A DNA stretch of 64,000 nt, from IMG/VR virus record IMGVR_UViG_2540341244_000005, positions 7,399 through 71,398 of that record. One strand, 5' to 3'. This document shows, piece after piece, positions 1-63,270 of the stretch; positions within the stretch are counted from its first letter, which is position 1, and each line of letters starts with the position of its first letter. The stretch comes from a virus (Duplodnaviria > Caudoviricetes). The position numbers and the translations under genes were made by a program. Under the pieces are notes generated by a model. The model was given only the letters and a program-made list of their open reading frames with translations. It had not been told where the DNA came from and did not search any database.

Positions 1-104
1 TGTGTCATATCTAGCGTTTTCTGACGTGCGCGCGTCCCTCTTCCTGTGTATGCGAGATAGCCTAGAACAGAGCCTATGACCAACAGCACGATAATGTTAT
101 CCAT
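1..104 (-). CDS. Partial (runs off window) AT-rich membrane-anchored protein, probable moron
   Basis: ATG at 104 with GAAGG upstream; MDNIIVLLVIGSVLGYLAYTGRG has an N-terminal hydrophobic helix; TTTACA-18-TATCCT promoter-like site at 206-235 on the minus strand. Confidence 0.5.
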   Translation of the reverse strand, partial: MDNIIVLLVIGSVLGYLAYTGRGTRARQKTLDMT

Positions 105-239
105 ATTGACCTTCATTATTGTTTTTGCCAAGTACCCGGCGTAGGCGTCTGGGGTGCATCTGGAGTCGATTTATAGTTTCCACGTTTTGTTCCCTGTTAT
201 TTAGCAGGATATGCTTCTGTCGGCTATCCTGTAAAATCG

Positions 240-683
240 CTATCCTTCCGCCCGCGCCAGCTCCCGCCGCACACTCTCCGCCGTAATTCGCGCCGGCGGC
301 GAATCCGGGTGCTTAGCCAACCGGCCTTCTTCAATCATTTCCCACACTCGGCTGCGACCAATCGAAAGCACGAATTCCACCTCGGGGACGGTCAACAAGG
401 CCTTTTTCGTGACCAGTTCCTGGGCAGAAACCGCCGGAAGTTGCGCAAATACGAGTTTTTTAGTCTTGAATGTGACCGGCAGCACCAGCTCAAATCCGAC
501 CGGATCAACCACACTGCACCGTTTCGGGCAGCCCACGCACACGAACTTGCGATCGCGGCTAAACCAGCGGGGTTTCCGCTTCGGGCCACAGCCCAGCGCA
601 GCATACGCCGAGCCCTCCACGAGCCCCATATACGGCAAAAATCCCTTCGTAAGCAGCGTCAGCACGTCGTCCACCACACTCAT
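240..683 (-). CDS. DNA-binding protein with C-terminal excisionase-like HTH, possible late-gene regulator
   Basis: LLTVPEVEFVLSIGRSRVWEMIEEGRL resembles HTH_17; last gene of the early operon, where Mor/C activators lie in Mu. Confidence 0.6.
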   Translation of the reverse strand: MSVVDDVLTLLTKGFLPYMGLVEGSAYAALGCGPKRKPRWFSRDRKFVCVGCPKRCSVVDPVGFELVLPVTFKTKKLVFAQLPAVSAQELVTKKALLTVPEVEFVLSIGRSRVWEMIEEGRLAKHPDSPPARITAESVRRELARAEG

Positions 684-1105
684 GTCCGTTTCCTCATGGT
701 GTCCAGGGCCACAGGTTCGTCACGACCAATCACCGGTGCCCACCAACGGCCGTCGATGCCAAGCACAGGCGCACTGGCCAAGAAAGTGACCTCGTAGGTC
801 GGTAATCCGTCCAGGCCGATCCGGCCTGTCGGCACGGCGACCCGGTCGCCGCGACGGTAGGACGGGGCCGGAGCGTCCTGGGGCGATTCCCGGTCGGCGA
901 CAAGGCAACAAAGCAGTGTGGATAGGCCGGCCAGGGTGTAAAATTGGTACTGATCCCCGCCGGGGTTGTGCCAGCAGCCATCCCGCCGCAGGCGGTATGC
1001 CTCGGCCGGGCCGCCCCATTGTTCAGCCTGAAACAGCTCCAGCTTGACCGTCTTGCCCTGGTTTCGGAGCAAAATCGTTGTCGATTTTCGGCGCTTTTCG
1101 CTCAT
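680..1105 (-). CDS. Hypothetical phage early protein
   Basis: ORF coupled to neighbours; likely start MSEKRRK at 1105. Confidence 0.6.
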   Translation of the reverse strand: MSEKRRKSTTILLRNQGKTVKLELFQAEQWGGPAEAYRLRRDGCWHNPGGDQYQFYTLAGLSTLLCCLVADRESPQDAPAPSYRRGDRVAVPTGRIGLDGLPTYEVTFLASAPVLGIDGRWWAPVIGRDEPVALDTMRKRT

Positions 1106-1109
1106 CGTA

Positions 1110-1478
1110 TCAACCAACTTGAGATAGCGCGGCAGCAGCATGGAGTGCCGCTACCGCCGCTGCCTGCCGCTCCCAGAGCGTCCGACAGCCCTTGCAACGT
1201 CGTTTGTCCGTCTGTCGGCATCTGGCGCATCCCACCCGCTCCAGGGCCTCGTAGATCGCTGTCAAGCTGGGTGGCTCGCTCCCCTTGGCGGCTGGCGGCG
1301 TATCGGCCAGGGCGGCCTGGATGCGCGCCGTCTGTCGGGCCACGTTGCCGGGATAGCGCCCGGAAAGGAGCTGGAGCACAACGCTTTTGGTGATGCCCGT
1401 CGCCTTGCAGTACGCGTAAATGCTCCGATGGCGGGCCAGGATGGCGGCCCGCAACGCCTCGCGTTCGTCCGGCCCCAT
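1110..1478 (-). CDS. HTH-type DNA-binding protein with Cys-rich C-terminus
   Basis: IYAYCKATGITKSVVLQLLSGRYPG HTH-like segment; CxxC...CxxC. Confidence 0.6.
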   Translation of the reverse strand: MGPDEREALRAAILARHRSIYAYCKATGITKSVVLQLLSGRYPGNVARQTARIQAALADTPPAAKGSEPPSLTAIYEALERVGCARCRQTDKRRCKGCRTLWERQAAAVAALHAAAALSQVG

Positions 1479-1481
1479 GCG

Positions 1482-2048
1482 TCATCTTGCCATGGCCGTG
1501 GCGCGTCGCGTACCGCCGGCTTCGGCCGGCTCGGGATCAATGCCGGCTTTGCGGCACCGGCTCCACAGATCCTTGGCCAGGGTGGACAGGGCGGCCGTGT
1601 CGGTCAACCAGACATACTTTTCGACGCCGAACTGTTTGGACACCCGGGCGTCCAGACTCTTGGGCTCGTAGCCGAGCAGGCACCACAACATGAGGATATA
1701 CTTCTTCTGCCGCGCCAGCGGGCCCGCCGGGATGTCCAGGCGCTCGTAGCCGTCGACCTTGTCGCCCTTGCGCCAGTTGTGCAGACGCTTCGGCAAAAGC
1801 GGGATGTCCACGGCGGCGTGGTCGGGGAGCCACTGGGCGGCCAAGGCATCGAGCACCTGGTTGCGCTGCCCCAGCGTCAGCTTCGACCAGGAGGCCGCCT
1901 TGCCGCCCAGGATGCGGCCGAACATTTCGATCAACAAATCCCGGTCGTTCTCGTAAGAAAGCGTTGTGGCCTTCAGGAGCGTTCCGAAAAAGACCTTGCT
2001 TTGCATGTTGTAGATGGCCGCGCATGGGACGAAAGGTCGCTTTGCCAT
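1482..2048 (-). CDS. gemA: GemA-like (Mu gp16/DUF1018) regulatory protein
   Basis: ASWSKLTLGQRNQVLDAL and QKKYILMLW...SKQFGVEKYVWL match the GemA pattern; position in the early operon. Confidence 0.55.
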   Translation of the reverse strand: MAKRPFVPCAAIYNMQSKVFFGTLLKATTLSYENDRDLLIEMFGRILGGKAASWSKLTLGQRNQVLDALAAQWLPDHAAVDIPLLPKRLHNWRKGDKVDGYERLDIPAGPLARQKKYILMLWCLLGYEPKSLDARVSKQFGVEKYVWLTDTAALSTLAKDLWSRCRKAGIDPEPAEAGGTRRATAMAR

Positions 2049-2051
2049 GGG

Positions 2052-2303
2052 TTACCTCTCGGAAGCAGGGTTTTGAGGATGCTTGCGGGCACCTGCGAGC
2101 AGGGAGCAACGCACGGACGTCACGTTGTCTGGTTGCAGACAAACTTCCTGCCGGCTGGGCGTGCCGTCGTTCTTGAGCTTTTTCCCGATGCCGCCGCCGT
2201 TGCTGTAAACGACCACTAGCCGGATCGGTCCCTTGTGGCGTCGGCTGACGACGACGTCACCCGGTCGCATGGCTATTGCCGTATTGAGGACGGCAGCGGG
2301 CAT
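2052..2303 (-). CDS. Hypothetical phage protein
   Basis: ATG at 2303 overlapping the upstream stop; AGGAG RBS. Confidence 0.5.
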   Translation of the reverse strand: MPAAVLNTAIAMRPGDVVVSRRHKGPIRLVVVYSNGGGIGKKLKNDGTPSRQEVCLQPDNVTSVRCSLLAGARKHPQNPASER

Positions 2304-2533
2304 CAGCGGCTCCTTTGCGGCTTGGATGGGCGTTTGCGCACGATGAAGTGGTCTCCTGCCCGCACCCCGCAGATATACGGGATGCCGCACAGCAGTTTGC
2401 AGCCTGGGCAAACGACATTGTTGTTCATTTGCCGCGCCTGATAGGTTCCCGGGCAAAGGCAGTTCTTGTTCCCGATTTCGGTCATAAAGACCGGAGTGCC
2501 CTGGGGGAGCTTCTCTTGGTAGCTAAGATACAT
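2303..2533 (-). CDS. Hypothetical Cys-rich phage protein
   Basis: MYLSYQEKLP start with GGAGG RBS. Confidence 0.5.
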   Translation of the reverse strand: MYLSYQEKLPQGTPVFMTEIGNKNCLCPGTYQARQMNNNVVCPGCKLLCGIPYICGVRAGDHFIVRKRPSKPQRSR

Positions 2534-2544
2534 GCCCGCCTCCC

Positions 2545-2850
2545 TTAGAAATTCACTCGATAGACCGCCAATTCGGCCTCCAGTTCGGCCACCCTGGCCC
2601 GCAGCCGCGCCACCTCTTCCGGCTCGACGGCCATGGCCTCGGGCGTTGGCTCGGACGCAATTTCCTCGGCTGCCTCGGCAAACGCCGAGGCGACAAGCAC
2701 CTGCGGGCGAAACAGTTGATAGCCCGTTCCGTTCCAGAGCCGGACTTGACGTCCTTGTGGGGCGATCACGTACTTTGAGGCCACACGGCGCACCTTTCCA
2801 CGCGCGTTGACCTCGTAGGCCTCGAAGCCTGGGATGCCCCGCCATTCCAT
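2545..2850 (-). CDS. NUMOD4-like domain protein with C-terminal coiled coil
   Basis: MEWRGIPGFEAYEVNARGKVRR matches NUMOD4; no HNH motif seen. Confidence 0.6.
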   Translation of the reverse strand: MEWRGIPGFEAYEVNARGKVRRVASKYVIAPQGRQVRLWNGTGYQLFRPQVLVASAFAEAAEEIASEPTPEAMAVEPEEVARLRARVAELEAELAVYRVNF

Positions 2851-2855
2851 GCTGC

Positions 2856-3098
2856 TCACAGCAGGCACCTGTGAAGGCGGTCGGCGAAAGCCGCCACGCA
2901 GTCGAGTTTGGCAGCGACGTCCTGGGCAAAGCCAAAACCGGGGATGAGCATGGTGGCGTTGTCATACGCCAACGTGGCCTCGCCTTGGATGGACTCATGA
3001 AGCGCTGTCGCATCGCCAACAGCCAAAGGGATGGCCCCATCTGGGGTCGCCTCGCCGATCTCAATCATGCCGGTTGCCCAACAGTATGCTACGGCCAT
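2856..3098 (-). CDS. Conserved Mu-like early protein (family often annotated host-nuclease inhibitor)
   Basis: AYCWATGMIEIG...LIPG motif; AGGAG RBS. Confidence 0.55.
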   Translation of the reverse strand: MAVAYCWATGMIEIGEATPDGAIPLAVGDATALHESIQGEATLAYDNATMLIPGFGFAQDVAAKLDCVAAFADRLHRCLL

Positions 3099-3110
3099 GG
3101 TCTTCTCCTG

Positions 3111-3173
3111 GTGGCTGCTCATCAGGCCCGGGCCGCCACGCCCGGACGACCGCCCACATGGGGCGGTTTCGCA
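3111..3173 (-). ncRNA. Type II hammerhead ribozyme
   Basis: UGC-GAAA-CCGCCC(CAUGU)GGGCGG-UC^-GUCCGGGC(GUGGCG)GCCCGGGC-CUGAUGA-GCA: complete core and three stems; loop I GUGGC can pair with the 3' GCCAC. Confidence 0.9.
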
Positions 3174-3479
3174 TCAGGCGTTCGGATTCAACGCATCCTT
3201 CAGCGCCTTCCCCACATTGAGCTTGGCGCTCCGGCTGGCCTCGATATCAATGGTCGCACCGGTGCGGGGATTGCGGCCTTTGCGCGCCTTGCGTTCCACC
3301 AGTTCCAGCGTGCCCAGGCCGGGCAGCGTCACCTTGCCGCCCTCGGCCAGGATCGAGGCGGCCTCCGCGCCGAGTGCATCCAGCACATGGCTAATGGTGG
3401 TCTTCTCGTGTATGTGCTTGGTCTGCACGTCGCCGGCCAGCCGGTCCTTGATCCTGTCGATGAGTCCCGCTTTGCTCAT
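3174..3479 (-). CDS. HU/IHF-family DNA-binding protein
   Basis: MSKAGLI...VTLPGLGTLELVERKARKGRNPRTG...GKALKDALN. Confidence 0.92.
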   Translation of the reverse strand: MSKAGLIDRIKDRLAGDVQTKHIHEKTTISHVLDALGAEAASILAEGGKVTLPGLGTLELVERKARKGRNPRTGATIDIEASRSAKLNVGKALKDALNPNA

Positions 3480-3497
3480 GTTCCTTTTCCTCCACGG

Positions 3498-3794
3498 TTA
3501 CATGGTCATTCCGGCCTGGATTCTCCGAGCCTCGGTGACGTAGTTGGCGGTCATGGCCCCGGCCGAAGCCGCCCGGTTGATGAGGTCAGACAGCGCTTCG
3601 GCCTTCTTCTTCCAGCCTAACGCCTGGGCTTCGGCGCTTCGCAACACCCGCATGGGCACCACCCGATCCGTCGCAGCGTCGCAGGGCGACACGCTCCGGC
3701 TGGCGCAGTTGCCGCACAAGCTCTCGCCGCCGAGAGCCAGCGGCAAACCCACGTGGCCGCATTCCGTGCATTTGCAAGACTGCTTGCCGTCCAT
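3498..3794 (-). CDS. Hypothetical Zn-ribbon protein
   Basis: CTECG...CGNC. Confidence 0.5.
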   Translation of the reverse strand: MDGKQSCKCTECGHVGLPLALGGESLCGNCASRSVSPCDAATDRVVPMRVLRSAEAQALGWKKKAEALSDLINRAASAGAMTANYVTEARRIQAGMTM

Positions 3795-3813
3795 ACTGCC
3801 CCCGCTGGCCGGT

Positions 3814-4041
3814 CTACGGCCGATCCTGGTCCAGATGTTCCACCAGCCGGATACTGGCTGCGGCGATTTTTACCGCCTGCTGACGAGCCTTGTCGTAATG
3901 CCCATTGAGCATGGACCTGCAGACGTTCGCGCTGGCATTTGCGACAGCTCCCGCCAGCAGAAAAGCCATATCGTCTTCCGGGGGCATGGCCGGCAGCCGC
4001 TCCAGCTCCCGCACCACTTCGATGGGCAGCGCGTCCATCAC
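3814..4041 (-). CDS. Hypothetical phage protein
   Basis: ORF overlaps the upstream stop; operon continuity. Confidence 0.5.
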   Translation of the reverse strand: MMDALPIEVVRELERLPAMPPEDDMAFLLAGAVANASANVCRSMLNGHYDKARQQAVKIAAASIRLVEHLDQDRP

Positions 4042-4652
4042 AGCACCGCGATATCCAGGGCGATGGGCGCATAGCTGTCGTCATCCCGGCGCTCGTAGAC
4101 CCGCAGGAGCTTTTTCGAGCCAATCACCTGCAAGCTGTCCGCGATGGCCTCCATGGCCTCCCGCCAGCGTTTGTCCTGGATGTCGAGCTTGCGCAGGCCA
4201 AGGATTGCGCCGGTGTTGACGCGTCCTTCCGTGTCCACGGCGAAGGCCTGATTGATGATGGCCTTGATCTCTTCGGTGCTCCCCTTGGCCCATTCGGTCA
4301 GGCATTCGTCGACCAAGGACTTCGCGACCTGCAACCGTTCATCAAAGGACAGGTGGTCGCTGATCTGAAGCTGCACCTTGTATCGGCCATCGAAGCTCAT
4401 CAGGGTGATGTTGCCCTTGAGGCCGCCGCGTTTGGCCCCGTATTTCTCGGCCGACAGGTCGGCGAAGGCCTGAATGTCGCCCAGGGTGTTGGCGCGAAAG
4501 GTCCGCAACACCGCCTGCGCGTCCTTGGCAGCGCCCACGATGCCGCGCACCAGGTCATCGCGCAGCTTGTCCACCTCCTTGACCTTGCCGACCGGGATCA
4601 AGTGCTTTTTGGCGTCTTCCATGTACCCTTCGGGGATGCTCGTTTCGCTCAT
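4038..4652 (-). CDS. DUF3164 family protein
   Basis: IPEGYMEDAK...GGLKGNITLMSFDG...FDERLQVAKSLVDECL...ALDIA typical of DUF3164. Confidence 0.85.
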   Translation of the reverse strand: MSETSIPEGYMEDAKKHLIPVGKVKEVDKLRDDLVRGIVGAAKDAQAVLRTFRANTLGDIQAFADLSAEKYGAKRGGLKGNITLMSFDGRYKVQLQISDHLSFDERLQVAKSLVDECLTEWAKGSTEEIKAIINQAFAVDTEGRVNTGAILGLRKLDIQDKRWREAMEAIADSLQVIGSKKLLRVYERRDDDSYAPIALDIAVL

Positions 4653-5260
4653 GACTCCTGTTCCTCCTTCTCGAACCGGGCCAGGATGGCCCGGCAGTTT
4701 TCAATGATTTTGGCGCGGACGGCCGGTTGGTAGGGGTCGCGCTCCATAAAGGCCCGCACCAGCCGGCAGGCCGCATTGCGCTCGACCTCGAAGGGATCGG
4801 CGGCATCCTGGGGAGGGTACGGCGTGTTCACCGTGTCCTTGGCCCGTAGCGTGGCCCGAAAAAGGTACGTCGCCCCATCCCGGCCGTGGCGTTCGACAAA
4901 GCCCTCTTCAAGGAGCCATTGCCCGTATTTCCGAACATGGGTGTAGGAAACCCGAGACACCTGGGCGATGCCCGTCCAGGAGAAACCAGGCTTCGCCGAA
5001 CGGATGGCCCGCCAAGCCCGTTGGTAGAACTCCCCACTGCGAAGCCTGGCCTTGGGGTTGTAGGCGTACTTCCCGTCCTCAATGCGCGTCAGTTCCGCCC
5101 GCTTGATGAGGTCATTTATCCGGGAGCGCAGCCGGGCCTTGGCCGGCTCGTTGTCCAACCCCATTGCCTCGTAAAGCAGGGCGTTGGTGACCGGCTCCTT
5201 GCCGTTGATCGTCAGGCCCTGGATGACCAACCGCAGGCGGTCCATCTCCTCGGTTCTCAT
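4649..5260 (-). CDS. Winged-helix-like phage protein
   Basis: AWRAIR...IAQVSRVSYTHVRKYGQWLLEEGFV; directly downstream of MuB. Confidence 0.6.
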   Translation of the reverse strand: MRTEEMDRLRLVIQGLTINGKEPVTNALLYEAMGLDNEPAKARLRSRINDLIKRAELTRIEDGKYAYNPKARLRSGEFYQRAWRAIRSAKPGFSWTGIAQVSRVSYTHVRKYGQWLLEEGFVERHGRDGATYLFRATLRAKDTVNTPYPPQDAADPFEVERNAACRLVRAFMERDPYQPAVRAKIIENCRAILARFEKEEQES

Positions 5261-5976
5261 GCCCGCCTCCAGCTCTTTTGCTTCTGGATCGCCGCCACCA
5301 TGGCCGCGTCGGCCTTGTCGGTTTCGCGGGCCTTGGCCGCCTGTTCCAGCATCTGCACCATGTTGCGCACCAGCCGCATGTCGCCGTCCGAAGTGGCCCG
5401 GACCATGGCGCAGGCTTCGGGCGTCAAGTCGAGGCCGGCGGCTTCGAAGGCGAAGGCGGCGATGTCGCCTTCATCCACGGGGCCGAAGGCCACTTCCTGG
5501 GTCACGCGGGACCAGATGCGGCGGCGCTTGGACAACAGCCCGATAAGTTCCTCTTCCCCTATGAGGAGGATTGCCGCCCCGGTGGCCTCATGGATGTCGC
5601 GCAAGTCCTCGATCCGCCCGAAGGCCAGCCGGTCGGCTTCGTCCATGTAGATGGTGGCGGCCTGGCCCTGTTTGCGCCGTTTCTCCAGGACTTCGACAAT
5701 CCGCACTTTGCAGGCGTGGGCCGAACGCGGCGCTAGCGCACCCGTGACCTCAAAGCACAGCTTCCCGAGGAAGGCGGCCTGCGTCATGTCTTCCCATGCG
5801 GAAAGGAACACCCCGCCGCGCTCGGCCTGGCTGTTGCGAGCGGCAAACGTCTTGCCCCGGCCGGCCTGGCCCCAAGCCACGACAATGCCGGGCTGGCCTC
5901 GCTCGGTATCCTCGACAGTCAACACGGCCCGCTGAAAAGCGGCTACGTTGCCCGTCTCCACAAAAACCGATTTCAT
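5257..5976 (-). CDS. MuB-like AAA+ transposition ATPase
   Basis: Walker A GQAGRGKT, Walker B IYMDEAD, LRDIHE; follows the transposase. Confidence 0.92.
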   Translation of the reverse strand: MKSVFVETGNVAAFQRAVLTVEDTERGQPGIVVAWGQAGRGKTFAARNSQAERGGVFLSAWEDMTQAAFLGKLCFEVTGALAPRSAHACKVRIVEVLEKRRKQGQAATIYMDEADRLAFGRIEDLRDIHEATGAAILLIGEEELIGLLSKRRRIWSRVTQEVAFGPVDEGDIAAFAFEAAGLDLTPEACAMVRATSDGDMRLVRNMVQMLEQAAKARETDKADAAMVAAIQKQKSWRRA

Positions 5977-8084
5977 GCGTCTCCTCCCCCGTTGGCGGCC
6001 TTGCGACGGCGCTCGTAGACCGTGCGCAAGCGCGCGTAACGTCCAGCCGCGCAGGCCGCGTATTCCTCGGTTTGCTCATAGCGGGCCATCCATGCGGCGT
6101 CGGCCTCACGCAGGGCCAAGCCGTCACGAACGGCCAAATTGAAAAGGTATTCGTAGCGGTCGAGTTCATTGACGATGGTGGCCATCTGCGCCGGCGGCAC
6201 ATAGGCCGGGGCGGCTTCGATCTTGGCCCTGGCCGCGATCTTGGCGGCTTCGATGCTCTTGACGTTCGGGGCTTTCGGTTCCGGCAGAGCCGGCGTTTCG
6301 GCCTTGTCAGCCGACACCAGACGCATGCGAGTCTGTGTTTCCGGCAGCACCACGGAATTCAGGAAATCTCTGGCGTTGGCCGTGACCTGGTTTTCCAAGG
6401 CCTTCTTGTAGGCGATCTCGCTCGTCAGAACGGCCTGATCGTCAGCGGTCCCAAGGAGGCGGGCAGCCGGATGCACTTTCGGCACGGGCGTGGCCTCGCA
6501 GATCAGATTCTTGCCGGACTGGTCGTAGACGAGCACCGACCGCCGGTCCTGCTCGTCGAAGCGCACCAGCACGGGATGGCGCAGGCTATGCAAGAAGGGA
6601 TGGCGATAGGACTGCCCAAAAAGGCCCACGCCGTTGCGGTCGATGGTGCGGACCACCTTGGAGAGCATGCACAGCCGCAGCTTAAGCAGATCGCCTTCGC
6701 CAAGGCCGGGACCGGCCCCCGCAGCAAACGCCTCGGCCGGAGCTTTGCCGGCCAGGTGGCCCCGCTGGGGGCGTTCGGCATAGGCATCGAACCAACTGGC
6801 AATGGCGGTATGGGCTTCCTCAAGGGTCAGCGGCCGGCCGCCGGATGCCTCATAGACTTTGCGGTGGAGCTTCTCCCCGCGCATGAGGCGCGGTGGCTTG
6901 GATTCTATGGACGTGCCGACATATGACGGTATCCAGCGTTCAAGCTCGCCGAACGTCTTAAAAAAGCGTTCAATGGTCTTGGACTGACCGTGGTAGGGCC
7001 AAGCGAAAAGCGGGGCTATGCCGAGTTCCTGAAATACGCCGCCAAGGCCACTTTGCTTCAGGTCCACGCCGTTGAAAAACTTGCTCCGGAAGGCCCGCCC
7101 GTTGTCCAGATAGGCCACCTTCGGAAACATTCCGAGTCGCAGGCATGCCCGGCGCAGGGCCGAGGCGATGGCTTGCGTGTTTTCCGTGGGCAGGATTTCC
7201 CAGCCAAGCGGGTAGCTGGATGCCATGTCGAACCACAGCACCAGTTCCATGCGCGCCCCCTTGCCGGTCTCCGGGTCGAGAATCTCGAAATTGAGGGCAT
7301 GGCCGTCGGCCACCAGGATGTCGCCCACGCTGATTTTCGAATAATCGCGCTCGATATACGGGCAACAGTCGTCGTTCCAGGCCTTGGCTCCCTCGCGGGC
7401 GTAGACCCATTCCCCGTAATTGAGGGTCATCCACTTGCGCAGGTAGCGGTACAGCGTGATTTCGGCGCAATCCGGCAAGCCGGCGGGCTTAAATGCCTCG
7501 CGGGCCATGCGACAGACTTCGGAAAGACAATGCTTGTTGGGATGGCGGACCAGGGCGAGCAAAATTTGGGCGTGTCGTTCGGTTACAACCGGCTCCACGC
7601 GCACGCCGCCGCGTGTGTCGGCCAGGGCCAGGGCCGAGCCGGTGCGGCGCATGGCGGTCTTCCAGCGTTCCAGGGATTGGACGGACACCTTATCGCCAAG
7701 GATTTCCTTGATCTTGGGCCACACGCCGCCCCGGTAAGCGGCGACGAACTCCTTGCCGGCCTGTCCCTTGCGGGCCGCCTTGGCCAGGGCTTCGGTGTAG
7801 AGGCGCACCAGATCGGCTTTAGCCAGGGCCTTGCGGCGTTGATCCTCGGTCAGATTGGCATCGGCGGCCACGGCGGCGGGGAGATTGGCCCCCTCGTAAG
7901 CGGTAATGGCGTCCTGGATGTCCTCGGGCAAGGAGGCGGCGAGGTAGGCCTTTTCCCGCCAAGCTTTGCCCGAGCCGGCTTGTGCCGCGCAAGCCCACCC
8001 AGCTTTGCTTGCGCGGCTATTGACCGCCCGAGGTGTCACACCCAGGGCATAGGCCAATTCACTTGCTGTGTAAGCGTCCTTCAT
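5973..8084 (-). CDS. MuA-like DDE transposase
   Basis: N-terminal HTH (YTASELA); DDE motifs VADGH / YLDNG / KTIERFF; Mu-type C-terminal region. Confidence 0.95.
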   Translation of the reverse strand: MKDAYTASELAYALGVTPRAVNSRASKAGWACAAQAGSGKAWREKAYLAASLPEDIQDAITAYEGANLPAAVAADANLTEDQRRKALAKADLVRLYTEALAKAARKGQAGKEFVAAYRGGVWPKIKEILGDKVSVQSLERWKTAMRRTGSALALADTRGGVRVEPVVTERHAQILLALVRHPNKHCLSEVCRMAREAFKPAGLPDCAEITLYRYLRKWMTLNYGEWVYAREGAKAWNDDCCPYIERDYSKISVGDILVADGHALNFEILDPETGKGARMELVLWFDMASSYPLGWEILPTENTQAIASALRRACLRLGMFPKVAYLDNGRAFRSKFFNGVDLKQSGLGGVFQELGIAPLFAWPYHGQSKTIERFFKTFGELERWIPSYVGTSIESKPPRLMRGEKLHRKVYEASGGRPLTLEEAHTAIASWFDAYAERPQRGHLAGKAPAEAFAAGAGPGLGEGDLLKLRLCMLSKVVRTIDRNGVGLFGQSYRHPFLHSLRHPVLVRFDEQDRRSVLVYDQSGKNLICEATPVPKVHPAARLLGTADDQAVLTSEIAYKKALENQVTANARDFLNSVVLPETQTRMRLVSADKAETPALPEPKAPNVKSIEAAKIAARAKIEAAPAYVPPAQMATIVNELDRYEYLFNLAVRDGLALREADAAWMARYEQTEEYAACAAGRYARLRTVYERRRKAANGGGDA

Positions 8085-8128
8085 TGTGCCGCCATTTGTC
8101 CGCTTGAAAGATTTCCGCGTGTTACTTT

Positions 8129-8190
8129 CGGCTGCTCATCAGGCCGGACGCACCACCGTCCGACGACCGCCCCGCAGGGCGGTTTCGCAA
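8129..8190 (-). ncRNA. Type II hammerhead ribozyme upstream of the transposase
   Basis: UUGC-GAAA-CCGCCC(UGCG)GGGCGG-UC^-GUCGGACG(GUGGUG)CGUCCGGC-CUGAUGA-GCAG; stem I covaries with the copy at 3111-3173. Confidence 0.9.
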
Positions 8191-8193
8191 TGG

Positions 8194-8625
8194 TCAGACC
8201 GGCAGGGGGAGGGGTTCCCATTCAGGCCACCACGGAAGGAAGGAAAGACCTCCAAGGTGCCGAGCAAGTGCACGAATCTTCCGATAGCCATCCTTCCACG
8301 CCTGCCGATTAAAGCGGCTAGGACGGATAAACATGCAAGTCCGTTCCCAAAAGCGGATCGGGAATTTTGTGCTCTTGAAATATGTATAGGGAGCAGCCAG
8401 AGAGAATTCGAAGCCTTGTGCATCAAACGACAGATCGATGCCGGATTTAAAAACACGTCGTATGGCGACGAGCATCACGCTGTCGGGGACTCTGGCTTTC
8501 CGAATGACAGCATTGCAGGCGTGTTCCCCTGATATGGGGCCGTCTGCTCGCACAATGCCGTCCACAAAAGCAGCCAACGCCCTCTTGTACTGCGCTTCGC
8601 GTTTCTTGATCGTGCGTTTGTTCAT
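8194..8625 (-). CDS. Hypothetical basic protein of lower GC
   Basis: 143-aa ORF with AAGGA RBS; lower GC than flanks. Confidence 0.6.
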   Translation of the reverse strand: MNKRTIKKREAQYKRALAAFVDGIVRADGPISGEHACNAVIRKARVPDSVMLVAIRRVFKSGIDLSFDAQGFEFSLAAPYTYFKSTKFPIRFWERTCMFIRPSRFNRQAWKDGYRKIRALARHLGGLSFLPWWPEWEPLPLPV

Positions 8626-8629
8626 GATG

Positions 8630-8824
8630 CTATTCCTTTCCCATCAGGATATGCGTCATGCGTGAGGAAAACGATGAGCCGTTGTCGGTCATCATCACCT
8701 CGACGCCGCACATGGCCAAAAGCGCCCCTTTCACGGCCTTTTTTGACAGGCCGTTTTGCCTCAAAACCTGGGCAACCTGCCGCATTTCTTCCGCCTTCCC
8801 CGTCAACCGTTTCCGCTTGCTCAT
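8630..8824 (-). CDS. Small hypothetical protein
   Basis: Strong AGGAGG RBS; MSKRKRL. Confidence 0.6.
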   Translation of the reverse strand: MSKRKRLTGKAEEMRQVAQVLRQNGLSKKAVKGALLAMCGVEVMMTDNGSSFSSRMTHILMGKE

Positions 8825-8850
8825 CGCCCAACCTCCTTTCCTATTTTGAT

Positions 8851-8958
8851 ATTTCCCGCGCCCCCACAGGAGCTGGCGATCTGGTCGCTCTACCTCTCGT
8901 GCCGGGTGGTCTGGCGGTCTGGCCGCTCGGCCCCCGAACGCCGCGAAGGCGCGGAAAT
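8851..8958 (-). other. Structured intergenic RNA with twin CCAGA-loop hairpins
   Basis: 18-nt repeats GAGCGRCCAGAYCGCCAG at 8873-8890 and 8911-8928 with a compensatory pair change, enclosed by ATTTCCGCGCC/GGCGCGGGAAAT. Confidence 0.55.
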
Positions 8959-8967
8959 TTCTGGCGG

Positions 8968-9186
8968 CTAGGCCGCTTGCTTGCCCTTCATGTCCGCCGG
9001 CAGAGCCAGCAGCTTCGCCGGACAGCCGGCATCCAGCAGCGCTTGCAGCGCCCTGCGGTTGTTGCGCTTGCCGTGGATGGTGTCGGACACCAGCGAATGC
9101 GAAACCTTGGCTTTGCGCGCGATTTCAATCACTTTGATCTTCTTTTCGGCCATCCAGCCTTTGATTTTGTTGCCTGCGCGTTTCAT
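8968..9186 (-). CDS. Ner/Cro-like HTH regulator
   Basis: IKGWMAEKKIKVIEIARKAKVSHSLVSDTIHG; divergent from cI. Confidence 0.8.
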   Translation of the reverse strand: MKRAGNKIKGWMAEKKIKVIEIARKAKVSHSLVSDTIHGKRNNRRALQALLDAGCPAKLLALPADMKGKQAA

Positions 9187-9617
9187 AATTCTGCCTCGAT
9201 TTTCCGCTTTCGCTCACGGAGCGCCTTGATCTCCCGCTCGGTGTGGGCCAGCTCCAACAGCTTCGCGTCGTCGCCGTCGATGATTCGCCACCCTAGGCCG
9301 TGCGACCGAGCTAGGATGTCGAGAGGCTCGACTGCACCAAACACATGGCAAAAGAGGTTCAGTGCCCGAACGCTCGGCACGTAGTCCGCTTCCTTGGGGT
9401 TGAGCCACTTTTCAAAGGTGGCCAGCCCAAGCTCCTTGGCGTTGCCGGCCGCTAGCCGCACGCCGAACCGCTTGGCCGCTTCATTCAACCGGTCAACGGC
9501 CTCCGCCCGCGACAGCCCGGCCGCTTGGATGATCCGATCCATGGACACCGCTATGTCCGCGTCCGGATTAAGCTCGACCAGTTCGAGCAGGCTGAGGCGT
9601 CGCGAGTGGGCAGCCAA
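9183..9617 (-). CDS. Phage regulatory protein (CII-like)
   Basis: TFEKWLNP...LNLFCHVFG...PLDILA pattern; first gene of the early operon; TTG start uncertain. Confidence 0.55.
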   Translation of the reverse strand: MAAHSRRLSLLELVELNPDADIAVSMDRIIQAAGLSRAEAVDRLNEAAKRFGVRLAAGNAKELGLATFEKWLNPKEADYVPSVRALNLFCHVFGAVEPLDILARSHGLGWRIIDGDDAKLLELAHTEREIKALRERKRKIEAEL

Positions 9618-9724
9618 TTCCGATTGCTCCGATCCAAAGTTTTCGGGCCGCCGGACATTGAGGATTATTGCCGGCCCTGGTAGCTACGTTCGTAACGGTG
9701 ACATTCGTCACCCCGTGAGAAGAG

Positions 9725-9795
9725 GATTAGAGCTAAAAGCGTTGACAGTCAACGCTAAAAAGCGCTTCCGAGCATGTTCGCTCATGCTAAAAAGA
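9725..9795. promoter_or_regulatory. Divergent lysis/lysogeny promoter-operator region
   Basis: Perfect palindrome AGCGTTGAC-A-GTCAACGCT (9738-9756) with TTGACA/TTGACT on opposite strands; second palindrome AGCATG-N6-CATGCT (9771-9788); three GCTAAAA repeats. Confidence 0.65.
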
Positions 9796-9824
9796 CAAAA
9801 TTCTGTAACTATCTGTATTAAAAC

Positions 9825-10448
9825 ATGATTCAAGACACAGGCCAGCCCCAAGGCATTTCCCAGCAAATTTCCCAGCATAGCCCAGATGCTGAGAAACACT
9901 TCCGCGCGAAATTCAGCCGAGTGTTGACCGCGTGTGGTGCTCGGAGTGACTCAGAATTGGCCAGAATTTTGGACATTAAGCCGTCGTCAGTTGGTGCGGC
10001 AAAGCGCAGGATGCAGCTCCCCCCCGGGTGGGTAGAGCAAATAGCACAAAGTTTTGAGATAAATGCGGATTGGCTTTTCTTCGGCACCGGCCCGATGCGC
10101 CGGGGAGAAGCCACAAAAGAGGCCCCAGCGTCGGCTCCCGCGCCTGCGGAAGCGTTTTTGACCGCCCCGCAGGAAGAGTTCCGGATGTCGGATATGCTGA
10201 CCAAGACAGCCGAAGTGCTGGAGTCCGACACAATCTACCGGACAGCATTAGCCAGCAATATAAACGCATTCCATCAAGCAGTGAGAAGCGAGCGGACGCT
10301 CGCGCGCATCGAAGAGAGGATGGCTGAATGGGAGGCGAAGGCGGACGCAATGGTGAAGCGCATGGAAGAGTTAGAGAGAGAGAACAGAGAATTGAAACAG
10401 CGGCTGGAGCCAACCGGCAGGGACAAGGCGGTGGGTGCGGAGGGGTAA
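9825..10448 (+). CDS. CI-type repressor (HTH plus coiled coil, no S24 peptidase)
   Basis: SDSELARILDIKPSSV...INADWLFFGTGPM is Phage_CI_repr-like; divergent from the early operon. Confidence 0.85.
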   Translation: MIQDTGQPQGISQQISQHSPDAEKHFRAKFSRVLTACGARSDSELARILDIKPSSVGAAKRRMQLPPGWVEQIAQSFEINADWLFFGTGPMRRGEATKEAPASAPAPAEAFLTAPQEEFRMSDMLTKTAEVLESDTIYRTALASNINAFHQAVRSERTLARIEERMAEWEAKADAMVKRMEELERENRELKQRLEPTGRDKAVGAEG

Positions 10449-10551
10449 ACTGATTATTGTATCAAAATGGCTTGCGGGCTCTTTTTTTATGTCCAGTGTA
10501 TTAGACGATTTGATATTGTGTTCATGTTTCGAGTAGATGCTCGCCCGCGTA

Positions 10552-10725
10552 TCTCATTTTGCCTGATATTTTTGCCCCCATTCAGGCCGTTTTTCTCATC
10601 TTGCCCCCCAGGCCTCACGCGCGCTTGGCCAAGGCCCCAAAGCCACGCCAGTCCTACGTTTAGCCTACGTTCGTCCTATCCGATCCAGCACCCACGCCAT
10701 TTCTCATTTTGCCTGACTCCCCATA
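10552..10725. repeat. Transposable-phage end with putative transposase-binding repeats
   Basis: TCTCATTTTGCCTGA at 10552-10566 and 10702-10716, TCTCATCTTGCCCCC at 10594-10608; spaced pattern like Mu L1/L2/L3; just beyond cI. Confidence 0.7.
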
Positions 10726-10753
10726 ACTGATTTGCGCTTTCGTTGGCACTTGG

Positions 10754-11476
10754 TCACGCGGCCTCACGTTTGGGGTACGGCTGGATCGGAAGGCGTAGGC
10801 GTTTGCGCCAGGGCTGCTTCAGAAATAGCACGTAGCGGAACTGGCGGAACTGATGCCGGGTGGCCCGGTGAAGGTTCTCCCGGAGGTGCTGGGCGCGGCC
10901 GCCTTGGTGGCGATGCGCTGTCAGCATCAGGACGTGATACCAGTCATCATCCAGGTGCCAGAAGGTGGCAAGGTGGCTGCCGCAGAACTGAAAGTTGCTG
11001 GCCTGGTAGACCACCCCCAACCCACCGCAGCGTTCGTCGGCAAAGCTCTGGACCCAGGCCACGGTCGGGCAGGCGCGGCGGATGTATTTCACCGCATAGC
11101 TTATTGCCTGGCTTTCCGTATTGCGCGGGCAGGCGTCGTCAAGCCACATCCTGTTGAGCTCCAGATATTCGCCGACCTTGGTCCCTTCCACCACCCTGCC
11201 GGCCAAGTGCGGGTTCAGGGCGTAGCCGAATTGGAGCACACCCCGAAAGTGCCCCTGATGGTAAACGCCCAGGTGCACGTAGCTGTTATTGACCACTCGC
11301 TTGGAATAATGCTTGGCCACGATGGTTTCCCGTGCCCTGGCCGCCGGGATGGCGGCCAGGTAGAGGTCGTGCTTGCCGAACCCTTGCACCCCGGTTTCGC
11401 CTATCAGGTAGCCCGGTTGGTCACCGGTCGGCGGTTCATACGGACTCGGTTTCGGCGGATGATACGGTCTGGCCAT
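10754..11476 (-). CDS. mom: Mom-family DNA adenine modification protein
   Basis: HYSKRVVNN...GVLQFG...LELNRMWL...RNTES...SFADERCG..GVVYQASNF; downstream of and overlapping com. Confidence 0.9.
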   Translation of the reverse strand: MARPYHPPKPSPYEPPTGDQPGYLIGETGVQGFGKHDLYLAAIPAARARETIVAKHYSKRVVNNSYVHLGVYHQGHFRGVLQFGYALNPHLAGRVVEGTKVGEYLELNRMWLDDACPRNTESQAISYAVKYIRRACPTVAWVQSFADERCGGLGVVYQASNFQFCGSHLATFWHLDDDWYHVLMLTAHRHQGGRAQHLRENLHRATRHQFRQFRYVLFLKQPWRKRLRLPIQPYPKREAA

Positions 11477-11627
11477 GGGTGCGCTCCCTGGGGGAGGCTC
11501 CATGGCCTTCTGTGATGGGGCTCGCGGCCCTCACGTGGTTGATGGTATGGCAGCGGGGACATTTGATTTCGATGGTCCCGGTGCCTTTGGCCAGTAAACG
11601 TCCGCATTGTCCGCAACGTATCTCCAT
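11436..11627 (-). CDS. com: Com zinc-finger translational activator
   Basis: IRCGQCGRLLA...IEIKCPRCHTIN; upstream of mom. Confidence 0.9.
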   Translation of the reverse strand: MEIRCGQCGRLLAKGTGTIEIKCPRCHTINHVRAASPITEGHGASPRERTHGQTVSSAETESV

Positions 11628-11682
11628 GATTACCTTTACAGGTTAGGCCGGAAGCGATAGCCCTCTAACGCCCGCGCGGGCT

Positions 11683-11756
11683 GGAGCGCGGCTTCGGCCG
11701 TGGCGCGATGTTGACGCATCGCGTCGGTGGGGCGGTTGCCGCCGCCCTGCCGCTCC
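11683..11756 (+). ncRNA. Putative tRNA-sized cloverleaf RNA divergent from com (copy 1)
   Basis: GGAGCG/CGCTCC closing stem, CGGC-TTCG-GCCG, CGCGATG/CATCGCG, GGGCGG-TTGCCG-CCGCCC; covaries with 62943-63020. Confidence 0.65.
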
Positions 11757-11793
11757 TCTTTGTAATTCCTCGCTCTCCGTTCTCCTCTATCGA

Positions 11794-12564
11794 TCAAATA
11801 GCTGAGCCGGCTTCATTGGCGGGGGCCGGCGGCCAGGCCACCGCGTCCACGGCGGCCGTCACAGCGGTTGGCGTCCCGGCCGCCTCGACGGCTCGCTTAC
11901 CGGCCAGACGCGCCAGCTCCACCGCGTCGCCATACGTCCACCAAGCATCCGCCATGGCCACGATGGTGCGGGCCACTGCCTCCGGCGTGTCGGCCGTGAT
12001 GCCGACCTCGCCGTAGACGGCCGGAAAGGATGCCTCAAAGGCGGCCAGCGCCGCAGGCTCCAAAGGAACCTGCCCCGATGCAATCGCGGCCAAGTAGGCC
12101 CGGGCCTGGCCCTCCTTGCGCTGGTAGCGGGCCATTTGGGCCGATCCGGGCGTAATCACCTGATTGCATCGAAGTTCCGCCATGTAATCGATCCGGTCAC
12201 AGGCTTCGGCACGGAGCCGATCCAGGTCGACCGCCGGCACAGGCCGCCAATCCCCGAATGTCGGGCACCCGGCCGGCAGGGGCACAACCGTGACGCCGGT
12301 CAGGGTTGCGGCCATGATGCGAGACAGAATGGAGTCCTCGGCCCGAAGAATGGCGTACTCGCCATCGTAAGAGACCGGTTCGGCCGTCACGTTGCCTTCG
12401 GCGTCGATCACGGCCGGGGTCTGGATGACGCGGCCGACGTATTGCAGCGCATGGTCATGGCTGGCCGTGATGAGTTCTCCGCTCGAAGTGGCGAGGTCAA
12501 AAGGCAGAAGCGCGGCGACGAAGGTGTCAAGGGACGCGCATTTCAGGCAGATATCGTATTGCAT
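11794..12564 (-). CDS. Tail-fibre-associated protein with DUF4376-like C-terminal domain
   Basis: GEVGITADTPEAVA...AW..VE.ARL motif shared with 14810-15526 and 62435-62938. Confidence 0.65.
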   Translation of the reverse strand: MQYDICLKCASLDTFVAALLPFDLATSSGELITASHDHALQYVGRVIQTPAVIDAEGNVTAEPVSYDGEYAILRAEDSILSRIMAATLTGVTVVPLPAGCPTFGDWRPVPAVDLDRLRAEACDRIDYMAELRCNQVITPGSAQMARYQRKEGQARAYLAAIASGQVPLEPAALAAFEASFPAVYGEVGITADTPEAVARTIVAMADAWWTYGDAVELARLAGKRAVEAAGTPTAVTAAVDAVAWPPAPANEAGSAI

Positions 12565-36284: not shown

Positions 36285-37775
36285 CTAAAAGTTGTCGAGC
36301 AGGTCGTCGGCCTCGCGCCGGCCCCTGGAGGTGACTTTGTCTTCGGTCAGCGTGTCGTTTGGTTGCTCGCCGGCATGGACAGTCAGAGCGGCCGCCCAGA
36401 AATAGTCCGCGTGGCCCGTGGCGTCGCTCCGCTCGGCGTCAAACCGGGAAAGTCCCGTGCTGGTCCTGAATTTCTGGACGCTGTGCAGGGACGTGGAAAT
36501 ATTGGTGTCGATGGGGATCAGGAACCCGTAGTCCTCCAGGACGTCCTTGAGTCCCACGGCCAGGGCCTCCTTGTTGGCGTTGCCAAAGTCGATGCCCTCG
36601 ACGCGCGACCCGAAGAGGTCGCGGGCTTCCTCGGCGAGCTGGCGGCCTATGCCGCTCTGATCGATGCAGGCCCGGCCACCGGAGCGCATGACGTGGGGCA
36701 GCACGGCATACAGCACATAGCGCTGCACACGAAACGGCATGCGGGCGAGAGGAATGACGACCTCGGTGATCCTGGCCACATCGGTCCGACGGGCGAGCCA
36801 GAGTACGGACAAGTCCCGGGTGCGGCCGATGTCGAATCCCAGGTCGAGAGGATCGCCTATGCCCACGAGCTGCGCCGTCAACTCCTTGGATTTGGTTTGC
36901 CACCAGGACGGGTCACTTTTCGTGAGTTTGAAATGCTTGTGGGCCTGGACGGCCAGATCCACGAGTTCGGTGACCCAATCCGGCGCGGCGTCGATATATT
37001 CGTCCTCGGCCGCTCGGAGGAGTTCCCAGGTCAGCCAGGCCGTGGCATCGTCCTGGGGCTCCAGCTCGTACTCTTCAAGCCACACAACGGGATCGGCGAC
37101 AAGGTCGCGCAGGCTCTCCACCGTGCGGATCTTGCCTTCCTCGTCCTTGAGGATGAGGCCTTCCCGGAGGGCGTCATGGATGCTGGTCCGGTGTTGCGAG
37201 TAGGCTTTGTTGCGGGTCAGGGCGTAAAACTTGGTCTTGGTTCCCCGGTGCGTCGAGGCGACGCGGACGCCGTAGCCTCGCGTGATGGCCGGCACGGCCG
37301 CCCGCCAGATGCCCCAATCGTCCTTGTGGAGGGCAAACTCGTCGAGGTTCACATTTCCCGAGAACCCGGGGATCGTGTCCGGGTTGGATGGGACCAGATT
37401 GAGAAACCGGTCGCCGGGAAACGCAACGAGCCAGGTATTGTTCTTGTCCGGGGTCAGCTTGCCTTCGGTCAGCAAGGATAACGCCTTGATGTGCCGGCGC
37501 ATCTCCCGGCCGGAACGAAACACCTGCCGGGCCGAGGCCGAGCCGTAAACGGATTCGATGGGGCGCGGCGACAGCGCTGTCTCCAGGATGGACTTGAACG
37601 TCAGGGCAAAGGATTTGCCGATCTGGCGCGAGGCCGGCCACACAATGCCGGCCGACCTGTCCTCGATAAAACGGCGTTGGTACGGGAGCATGATGCCCAG
37701 GGCGGCCTTGAGGCGCTCCCGGGTGTCACGGTCCTGCCCGAAGGCACGCTCAAACTTTTGGCCGGTCGTTGCCAT
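36285..37775 (-). CDS. Terminase large subunit
   Basis: LPYQ, SRQIGKS, NLDEFA, GFDIGR, IDQSGIG, HADYFWA. Confidence 0.95.
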   Translation of the reverse strand: MATTGQKFERAFGQDRDTRERLKAALGIMLPYQRRFIEDRSAGIVWPASRQIGKSFALTFKSILETALSPRPIESVYGSASARQVFRSGREMRRHIKALSLLTEGKLTPDKNNTWLVAFPGDRFLNLVPSNPDTIPGFSGNVNLDEFALHKDDWGIWRAAVPAITRGYGVRVASTHRGTKTKFYALTRNKAYSQHRTSIHDALREGLILKDEEGKIRTVESLRDLVADPVVWLEEYELEPQDDATAWLTWELLRAAEDEYIDAAPDWVTELVDLAVQAHKHFKLTKSDPSWWQTKSKELTAQLVGIGDPLDLGFDIGRTRDLSVLWLARRTDVARITEVVIPLARMPFRVQRYVLYAVLPHVMRSGGRACIDQSGIGRQLAEEARDLFGSRVEGIDFGNANKEALAVGLKDVLEDYGFLIPIDTNISTSLHSVQKFRTSTGLSRFDAERSDATGHADYFWAAALTVHAGEQPNDTLTEDKVTSRGRREADDLLDNF

Positions 37776-62942: not shown

Positions 62943-63020
62943 GGAGCAGGCGGGACGGGTGCAACCGTCCCACTGGCCCGGCGTGGTGACGCCGGTCCAC
63001 CGGCTTTCGCCAGCTGCTCC
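62943..63020 (-). ncRNA. Putative tRNA-sized cloverleaf RNA divergent from com (copy 2)
   Basis: GGAGCAG/CTGCTCC, GGC-GAAA-GCC, CCGGCGT/ACGCCGG, GGGACGG-TTGCAC-CCGTCCC; covaries with 11683-11756. Confidence 0.65.
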
Positions 63021-63084
63021 CTCCCCTGCGCATCAAGGGTAGGACGGGCGTAGCAGGCGGCAGCGCAACGTGTAAAGGTTGGAG

Positions 63085-63270
63085 ATGCGGGAGATTCGAT
63101 GCGGAGGGTGTAACAAGCTGTTGGCCAGGGGAGAGGTGGTCGACCTCTCCATTAAGTGCCCCCGGTGTGGGGAACTCAACCACGTGAGGGCCTTCACGAG
63201 CCCCGACCTAGAGAGCCAGAGAGCCCCGCAGAGGGAGCCCTCGCGTGGATCACAAAAAATCGGTCTTTGA
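63085..63270 (+). CDS. com: Com zinc-finger translational activator
   Basis: EIRCGGCNKLLA...IKCPRCGELN; overlaps the MTase start. Confidence 0.9.
   Translation: MREIRCGGCNKLLARGEVVDLSIKCPRCGELNHVRAFTSPDLESQRAPQREPSRGSQKIGL

Follow-up and report, generated by a model that had tools for sequence, protein, structure and literature searches.

A real, covarying structured RNA lies on the strand opposite com, just upstream of this gene, in the DNA analysed here (the window, 64,000 nt within a provirus record of 71,398 bases), where it occurs in two copies. Its structure, strand, conservation and strict gene linkage were observed directly. We consider the best explanation, with a probability of about 55%, to be a small non-coding RNA gene of Mu-like prophages that is transcribed away from com, or from a methylase gene, and restrains the modification operon; the transcript, its ends and its effect are what we infer from these observations.

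A covarying four-way junction on the strand opposite com

The two loci and the parts of the junction are as follows.

10754-11503, minus strand: mom-family DNA-modification gene (Pfam Mom, E 8.8e-76), overlapping the end of com
11436-11627, minus strand: com, homologue of the zinc-ribbon translational activator (Pfam Zn_ribbon_Com, E 1.6e-17), divergent from the RNA
11683-11756, plus strand (opposite com): four-way junction, copy 1, 74 nt (fold; covariation; 45.9 bits with model R1, 68.4 bits with R2)
11683-11688 with 11751-11756, plus strand: closing stem P1, 6 bp (fold)
11689-11700, plus strand: P2 or arm 1, 4 bp with a UUCG loop (fold)
11701-11726, plus strand: P3 or arm 2, 11 pairs including G·U, with a 4-nt loop (fold)
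11727-11750, plus strand: P4 or arm 3, 9 bp with a 6-nt loop (fold)
11794-12564, minus strand: gene after the tail fibre gene, convergent with the RNA (open reading frame list)
62943-63020, minus strand (opposite com): four-way junction, copy 2, 78 nt, with a GAAA loop on arm 1 (fold z -2.43; 99.2 bits with R1, 90.7 bits with R2)
63085-63249, plus strand: com of the second module (tblastn; Pfam Zn_ribbon_Com, 7.2e-20; ATG at 63085 read from the sequence)
from 63245, plus strand, running off the window: N6/N4 DNA methylase gene of the second module (Pfam N6_N4_Mtase, 1.7e-19)

Copy 1 occupies part of a 166-nt gap that separates com from the gene before it (11794-12564), whose product had phrog_32459, of unknown function, as its sole match. 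The plus strand of this gap folded at -75.6 kcal/mol (z -2.38; 3 of 200 shuffles were as good), and the com strand more weakly at -65.4 kcal/mol (z -1.21; 25 of 200). At the point where its four helices meet, copy 1 has no unpaired bases. A preliminary description, made from the sequence alone, had proposed a tRNA-sized four-way junction with a UUCG-capped arm opposite com and the same architecture, with different paired bases, in the other module. Folding bore out both points: copy 2 has the same four helices as copy 1, formed by different bases. Two details required correction. The middle arm, given as 7-8 bp, has 11 pairs including G·U, and the T-loop-like position suggested for arm 3 is not a constant feature, since the sequence and length (4-8 nt) of this loop vary among instances.

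The window apparently comprises three Mu-like modules (1-10750, 10754 to about 40250, and about 40260 to 64000). The first has a repressor gene on the plus strand (9825-10448) and genes for an early regulator, transposase A and the transposition protein B on the minus strand. The middle and third modules stand head to head, each terminating in a com cassette, and about 300 nt (10449-10753) accommodate both the middle module's right end and the first module's left end.

To collect relatives, we used com homologues, which supplied 33 viral loci and the best 80 of 421 genome loci. A covariance model (R1) built from copy-2-type sequences only also retrieved three further groups: the copy-1 type, a third type with a long arm 1, and a fourth type. 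These matches always lay just upstream of com on the opposite strand. A second model (R2) aligned 66 distinct instances, in which standard pairs occupied 96.2% of 2,049 pair cells, against only 41-57% when the registers were slid, and double-sided changes occurred in 22 of 32 pairs. On each of five measures, all 500 shuffles stayed below the observed value; as the instances are related and were aligned by fitting to the model, these covariation and shuffle figures are not probabilities. The covarying RNA claimed at the outset was thus upheld by the covariance models. Single-sequence folding provided an independent check on the model structure. The minimum-energy fold kept at least 80% of the model pairs in 58/66 instances on the RNA strand vs 27/66 on the other strand, and the RNA strand gave the more stable fold in 64/66.

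Three observations fix the strand. G·U occupied 255 cells and A·C, which would be G·U on the other strand, only 18, indicating that the RNA is on the strand antisense to com. One U·G pair of arm 3 was retained in 64/66 instances. The arm-1 loop was UUCG or GNRA (GAAA, GCAA, GUAA, GCGA) on the RNA strand in many aligned rows, and stable tetraloops read correctly only opposite com, as remarked earlier. The G-rich junction sequences were conserved while the helices covaried. The RNA is almost fully paired, with short loops that share no conserved sequence, no conserved single-stranded seed and no conserved internal loops in its helices. A protein-coding reading was rejected: loop and arm lengths differ by 1, 2, 4 and 20-31 nt among instances, so that no reading frame is kept.

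We compared the element with known RNA families. Rfam gave nothing at gathering threshold at the site. With the cut-off relaxed to E 10 in the window and to E 5 in 20 diverse instances, the element still had no match; ARAGORN found no tRNA gene in the window. The identities proposed earlier (c4- or CI-like RNA, IsrK, tRNA mimic) consequently found no support in these searches. A tRNA-like element was rejected on the absence of linker bases, arms of 9-11 bp, and the lack of a conserved T- or D-loop and of CCA, and a C4 or P4 CI-type RNA on the lack of a C4 model match in either copy (E up to 10) or in the 20 instances (E up to 5). A tRNA mimic, or an immunity RNA of the c4/CI type that RNase P would mature, is favoured by the four helices, the tRNA-like overall size and the 6-7 bp closing stem beside the 3′ arm; set against the search results and the linker-free, long-armed junction, these features leave this reading with hardly any probability. 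Self-cleaving ribozymes (hammerhead, twister-sister, hairpin) were also rejected, as there was no Rfam match at the site and no conserved internal loop.

Hammerhead_II matched twice in the window, away from the junction site. These type II hammerhead ribozymes (3109-3174 and 8126-8190, both minus strand; 77.2 and 64.6 bits) belong to the first Mu-like module, a third one besides the two that end in com cassettes; those two had none. The ribozyme at 8126-8190 immediately precedes the transposase gene (5973-8084) and has a 143-aa open reading frame on its other side. The Rfam tRNA model matched true tRNAs only, elsewhere in three of the collected loci and less than 1.5 kb from the element (L246:30-103, L160:2629-2701, L171:2592-2663); these genes may flank prophage ends.

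Linkage to DNA-modification genes

Whole-genome searches were made with the RNA model, so the distribution that they gave is independent of com. The family of a Nitratidesulfovibrio genome, probably Desulfovibrionaceae, yielded 54 matching places, spread over 35 of the 151 genomes searched. A sample drawn across the phylum contained 4 matching genomes out of 151, of which two were new low-GC genomes. Nitratidesulfovibrio sp. HK-II has three copies and Halodesulfovibrio aestuarii DSM 17919 has two. The com-anchored matches came from Desulfovibrio, Nitratidesulfovibrio, Pseudodesulfovibrio, Halodesulfovibrio, Maridesulfovibrio and Bilophila, and the junction was absent from the examined com loci of Collimonas, Pseudomonas, Acidovorax, Methylophaga and similar genera. 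Among isolated phage records, neither copy's RNA region had a match; the only match, to the com-coding part, was in Curvibacter phage TJ1.

All 65 assessable instances had a divergent DNA-modification gene 40-113 nt off on the 5′ side; the 66th is at a contig end. This neighbour was com in 54 instances and a D12 methylase gene in 11:

com, then Mom: 9 instances
com, then N6/N4 methylase: 28 instances
com, then another gene: 17 instances (of 3 checked, C5 methylase in 2 and a GNAT protein in 1)
D12 adenine methylase without com: 11 instances

The divergent linkage also held for instances found without using com, and the tie to the com-mom or methylase cassette expected from the window alone was borne out throughout. 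Placement is that of a cis-encoded antisense RNA, on the opposite strand of an adjoining or overlapping unit. The neighbour at the 3′ side is the last tail gene, which runs towards the RNA. Replacement of mom by methylase genes downstream of com in Mu-like phages is already described in the portion of PMC3299994 available to us. Examples of the exchangeable gene behind the RNA or com are L021:1619-2404, L025:1634-2485, L175:1824-2957 and L245-L262 among the loci collected here.

A loose DNA pattern scan of viral contigs proved too unspecific, and 100 of its loci were searched with R2. Of these, 93 had no match; the other 7 were true members, all facing com. In 860 kb of other viral DNA there was no match at E<=0.01 beyond the 7 members and 3 reverse-strand matches to them, which supports the specificity of the model.

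Promoter-like motif, flanking hairpins and a simpler relative

The sequences on either side of the junction contain the following features.

11635-11640, plus strand: -35-like hexamer TTTACA of copy 1, overlapping the complement of the com Shine-Dalgarno sequence (read from the sequence)
11658-11663, plus strand: -10-like hexamer TAGCCC of copy 1, 17 nt after the -35-like hexamer
11670-11681, plus strand: 5′ hairpin P0, a perfect 12-nt palindrome (fold)
11757-11767, plus strand: U-rich 3′ tail, possible RNA end (11725-11752 plus the tail is terminator-like in a scan)
63047-63076, minus strand: promoter-like element of copy 2 (TTTACA at 63076-63071, an 18-nt spacer ending in TGC, TACGCC at 63052-63047)

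Both copies contain the motif CCTTTACA, and its TTTACA part overlaps the com ribosome-binding site, in agreement with the conserved -35-like sequence that the preliminary description had placed there. We defined a promoter-like motif as a hexamer that agrees with TTGACA at four or more of its six positions, a 16-18 nt spacer, and a second hexamer that begins with TA and has its last base 14-36 nt ahead of the model start. Such a motif was present at this fixed distance from the junction in 50/66 instances vs 6.3 ± 2.4 in shuffled sequences (maximum 12), and TGn preceded the TA hexamer in 36 of the 50. The -35-like hexamer overlaps or abuts the Shine-Dalgarno sequence of the neighbouring gene; where the two are separate it is still retained, e.g., in the TTGATT variants and in the low-GC loci. 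Low-GC relatives have a near-canonical arrangement (TTGCAA, 17 nt, TGaTATAGC). A strict consensus sigma-70 scan called no promoter in either copy of the window. The -10-like hexamer mostly ends in C, not T, and TAGCCC escapes such a scan for want of a T at position 6.

In 58/66 instances the promoter-like motif is separated from the junction by a hairpin of -5 kcal/mol or better. Its tip contained a perfect palindrome of at least 8 nt in 36/66 (7.6 in shuffles). The palindrome centre varies among loci yet stays self-complementary (TGATCA, CGCGCG, TGTACA, GTGCAC and others), and GATC occurs within the tip in 22/66 instances. The possibility that the P0 tip is a target of the neighbouring methylase was rejected, as no correlation was seen among 14 D12 loci; D12 enzymes 72% identical have different P0 tips, and enzymes 46% identical share one. 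A further candidate, an activator site of the Mu C type at -43.5 of a promoter directed towards com, was rejected as a general rule because the distance of the palindrome from the start codon varies (about 43-56 nt; 65 in Mu) and little or no leader would be left.

These observations bear on whether the functional form is the com sense strand, as an mRNA leader, or the DNA itself, as an activator site or cruciform. The 27 instances in which the other strand also keeps at least 80% of the pairs are compatible with such a function, as are the frequent perfect DNA palindromes of the 5′ hairpin and the dyad site for the C activator that Mu has in the corresponding region. However, the 255 G·U pairs would become mismatches on the com strand, against 18 conversely, the tetraloops are correct on the RNA strand only, and the spacing between palindrome and start codon does not suit a Mu-like site followed by a leader. 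We regard a sense-strand or DNA element as very improbable.

At the 3′ side, the 12-nt tails after the junction contained 4.27 T on average vs 2.89 expected (66 instances). A further hairpin with a U tract followed in 13/66 instances on the RNA strand and 3/66 on the other, and only in these 13 is there a clear separate terminator. In copy 1 the stop codon of the gene at 11794-12564 lies 27 nt past the RNA tail. Judging from these sequence features, the RNA gene would be about 95-120 nt long, with its possible end in the U-rich tail.

We then examined 55 distinct com loci that lack the junction. An antisense-oriented terminator-like site was present within about 230 nt upstream of com in 38/55, and a sense-oriented one in 12/55. 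TGn before a TA..T hexamer (mostly TAGGCT or TAGCCT) occurred in 24/55, and a GUCGC..UCUUU end in 25/55. In 20 of 24 related loci the -10 element was 111-116 nt from the U tract, a spacing that indicates a defined gene. An alignment of 24 gave three hairpins, with RNAalifold compensatory changes in 17/24 predicted pairs; there was no match to an Rfam family, and the element was not found as a published family. In beta- and gamma-proteobacterial com loci it appears as an antisense-strand gene for a small RNA of about 105 nt, with an extended -10 element and a GUCGCC..UCUUUU terminator (L011, L014, L169, L183-L189, L193-L195, L200-L206, L211 and L221-L231; about 1340-1490, minus strand). In Pseudomonas phage Bise (L274), a 363-nt unannotated gap (record positions 36638-37000) between a reverse-transcriptase family gene and a DNA adenine methylase gene matches the region of this RNA at 36685-36804, and no com is annotated there.

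This simpler RNA resembles the junction RNA in place, strand and approximate length. Its -10 element, TGnTAGGCT or TAGCCT, is at the position of TAGCCC in copy 1; its first hairpin has, like P0, a palindromic tip whose central bases vary yet remain self-complementary; and the tip of its last, long hairpin, GGUG-UUnn-CGCACC, is like arm 2. R2 gave 8 weak matches (15.6-23 bits) to the simpler loci, all at the right place and on the right strand. Unlike the junction RNA, it has three hairpins in a row and a canonical terminator, and no closing stem, arm 3 or four-way junction. The shared tips, the likeness of the -10 elements and the weak R2 matches argue for kinship, and the junction RNA would then be a lineage-specific elaboration of a widespread com-divergent small RNA gene. 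RNAduplex comparison of 17 related small RNAs with com and the start of the next gene returned whole-length pairings with z near 0 (16/17 between -1.6 and +0.8, one at -4.4) and was uninformative.

The terminator-like sites also bear on the possibility that the element is a promoterless insulator, blocking antisense transcription that enters the right end of the prophage before it reaches the tail genes. Its closeness to the prophage end, the U-rich tail after the closing stem and the excess of antisense over sense sites at the other com loci are consistent with this function. A simple hairpin would suffice for termination, however, and the positionally conserved promoter-like motif just upstream, near-canonical in relatives, together with the defined spacing in the related loci, points instead to a gene. 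The insulator is accordingly, in our judgement, an improbable explanation.

Comparison with phage control RNAs and momP2, and possible role

The c4 RNA of P1 and P7 and the CI RNA of P4 are small structured phage RNAs that restrain a harmful or untimely function. The junction RNA is, like these RNAs and plasmid ctRNAs, small, highly structured and phage- or plasmid-borne, and a similar role is proposed here. It differs from them in having no loops complementary to a known target, and in its architecture and genomic place. Its likeness to ctRNA_pGA1 is below threshold (18.2 bits here and 31.7 bits at a related locus; gathering score 45). Transcription from the opposite strand likewise tunes modification and restriction genes in the EcoRI system, where, as far as the available text of PMC3141266 describes them, reverse promoters within coding regions give rise to antisense RNAs that, unlike the junction RNA, have no conserved junction structure. 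We found no description of such an RNA in the literature, and the word 'antisense' does not occur in the portion of PMC3299994 available. The RNA family therefore appears to be new, being absent from Rfam 15 as well.

A closer parallel is the mom operon of phage Mu. According to the accessible parts of PMC4287176 and PMC3378877, the promoters momP1 and momP2 of Mu are divergent; as long as the activator C is absent, RNA polymerase stays at momP2, in competition with the weak mom promoter; and expression of mom is cytotoxic and subject to silencing at several levels. Like momP2 as depicted there, the promoter-like motif at the junction RNA is directly upstream of com, points away from it and overlaps the control region of the modification operon; its position and orientation are those of a momP2-type promoter. 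In the Mu sequence, the antisense strand reads TTGCAT, 16 nt, TAAAAA right after the complement of the com Shine-Dalgarno sequence. This is the layout found at the junction RNA, and because of it the element is best read as the counterpart of momP2. By this analogy, the site would be the place of momP2 plus a conserved, very stable RNA as its putative product. The 94-nt gin-com gap of Mu has no junction RNA; the best model score in Mu was 7.1 bits, elsewhere. For momP2 the same portions of PMC4287176 and PMC3378877 describe no structured product, whereas at the junction loci the putative product itself is conserved. A short GC hairpin followed by six T lies opposite gin in Mu (L273, about 1620-1645, minus strand), about 130 nt past the presumed momP2; going by its sequence, it could end a momP2 transcript. 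As a kind, the junction RNA extends the known theme of momP2 and antisense control.

For the reading that we favour, a small RNA gene restraining the modification operon, we propose the following mechanism. Transcription would start from a sigma-70-like promoter with a -35 element that overlaps the operon's ribosome-binding site. The transcript would run from a 5′ hairpin through the fully stacked four-way junction, with its conserved G-rich strands and invariant G·U pairs, to a U-rich tail or terminator. The RNA gene would restrain a cytotoxic or late-only modification operon outside late lytic growth, by either or both of two routes. In the first, polymerase at the RNA promoter would compete with transcription towards com or collide with it head-on. 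In the second, the stable RNA would pair with late read-through transcripts from the tail genes and expose the operon leader to cleavage; this requires an mRNA start upstream of the RNA gene. If the com mRNA starts between the RNA promoter and com, as from momP1 in Mu, the RNA would not be antisense to it and promoter competition alone would apply.

The conserved junction sequence and the invariant G·U pairs exceed what simple antisense pairing needs, and we counted this against the proposed mechanism. Conserved junction sequences and wobble pairs suggest that the fold is recognised by something, and a protein-binding role in trans is hence conceivable. The RNA could be a trans-acting regulator, decoy or cofactor of an anti-restriction module, with a protein-bound junction, and not act mainly by pairing with the com leader. 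Conservation of the junction sequences and the U·G pair (64/66) amid covarying helices fits this alternative; so do the nearly complete pairing, with short loops and no conserved seed, and a linkage that persists although the modification enzymes belong to four unrelated families. Control in cis, on the other hand, is suggested by the strictly divergent placement, with a promoter atop the neighbour's ribosome-binding site; no candidate partner was identified, and the RNA has no likeness to any curated family. We treat a trans-acting RNA as a tentative second choice, well behind the cis-restraining RNA gene. Its fuller form is equally tentative: the junction and the U·G pair might be a protein recognition surface, the P0 tip might serve for dimerisation or as an operator, and the three-hairpin form might be the missing momP2-type product across Mu-like phages.

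The control of mom is a textbook case of the many-layered silencing of a toxic phage gene, in which, to our knowledge, momP2 has so far been treated solely as a competitor for RNA polymerase. A conserved covarying RNA from the corresponding place would turn a momP2-type promoter into a gene with a product. This RNA is linked to whichever DNA-modification enzyme the phage carries, and many Mu-like prophages of proteobacteria have a simpler counterpart of it. The finding adds to the known repertoire an RNA family with an unusually clean natural four-way junction for structural work, and offers a testable new layer in the timing of anti-restriction functions by transposable phages.
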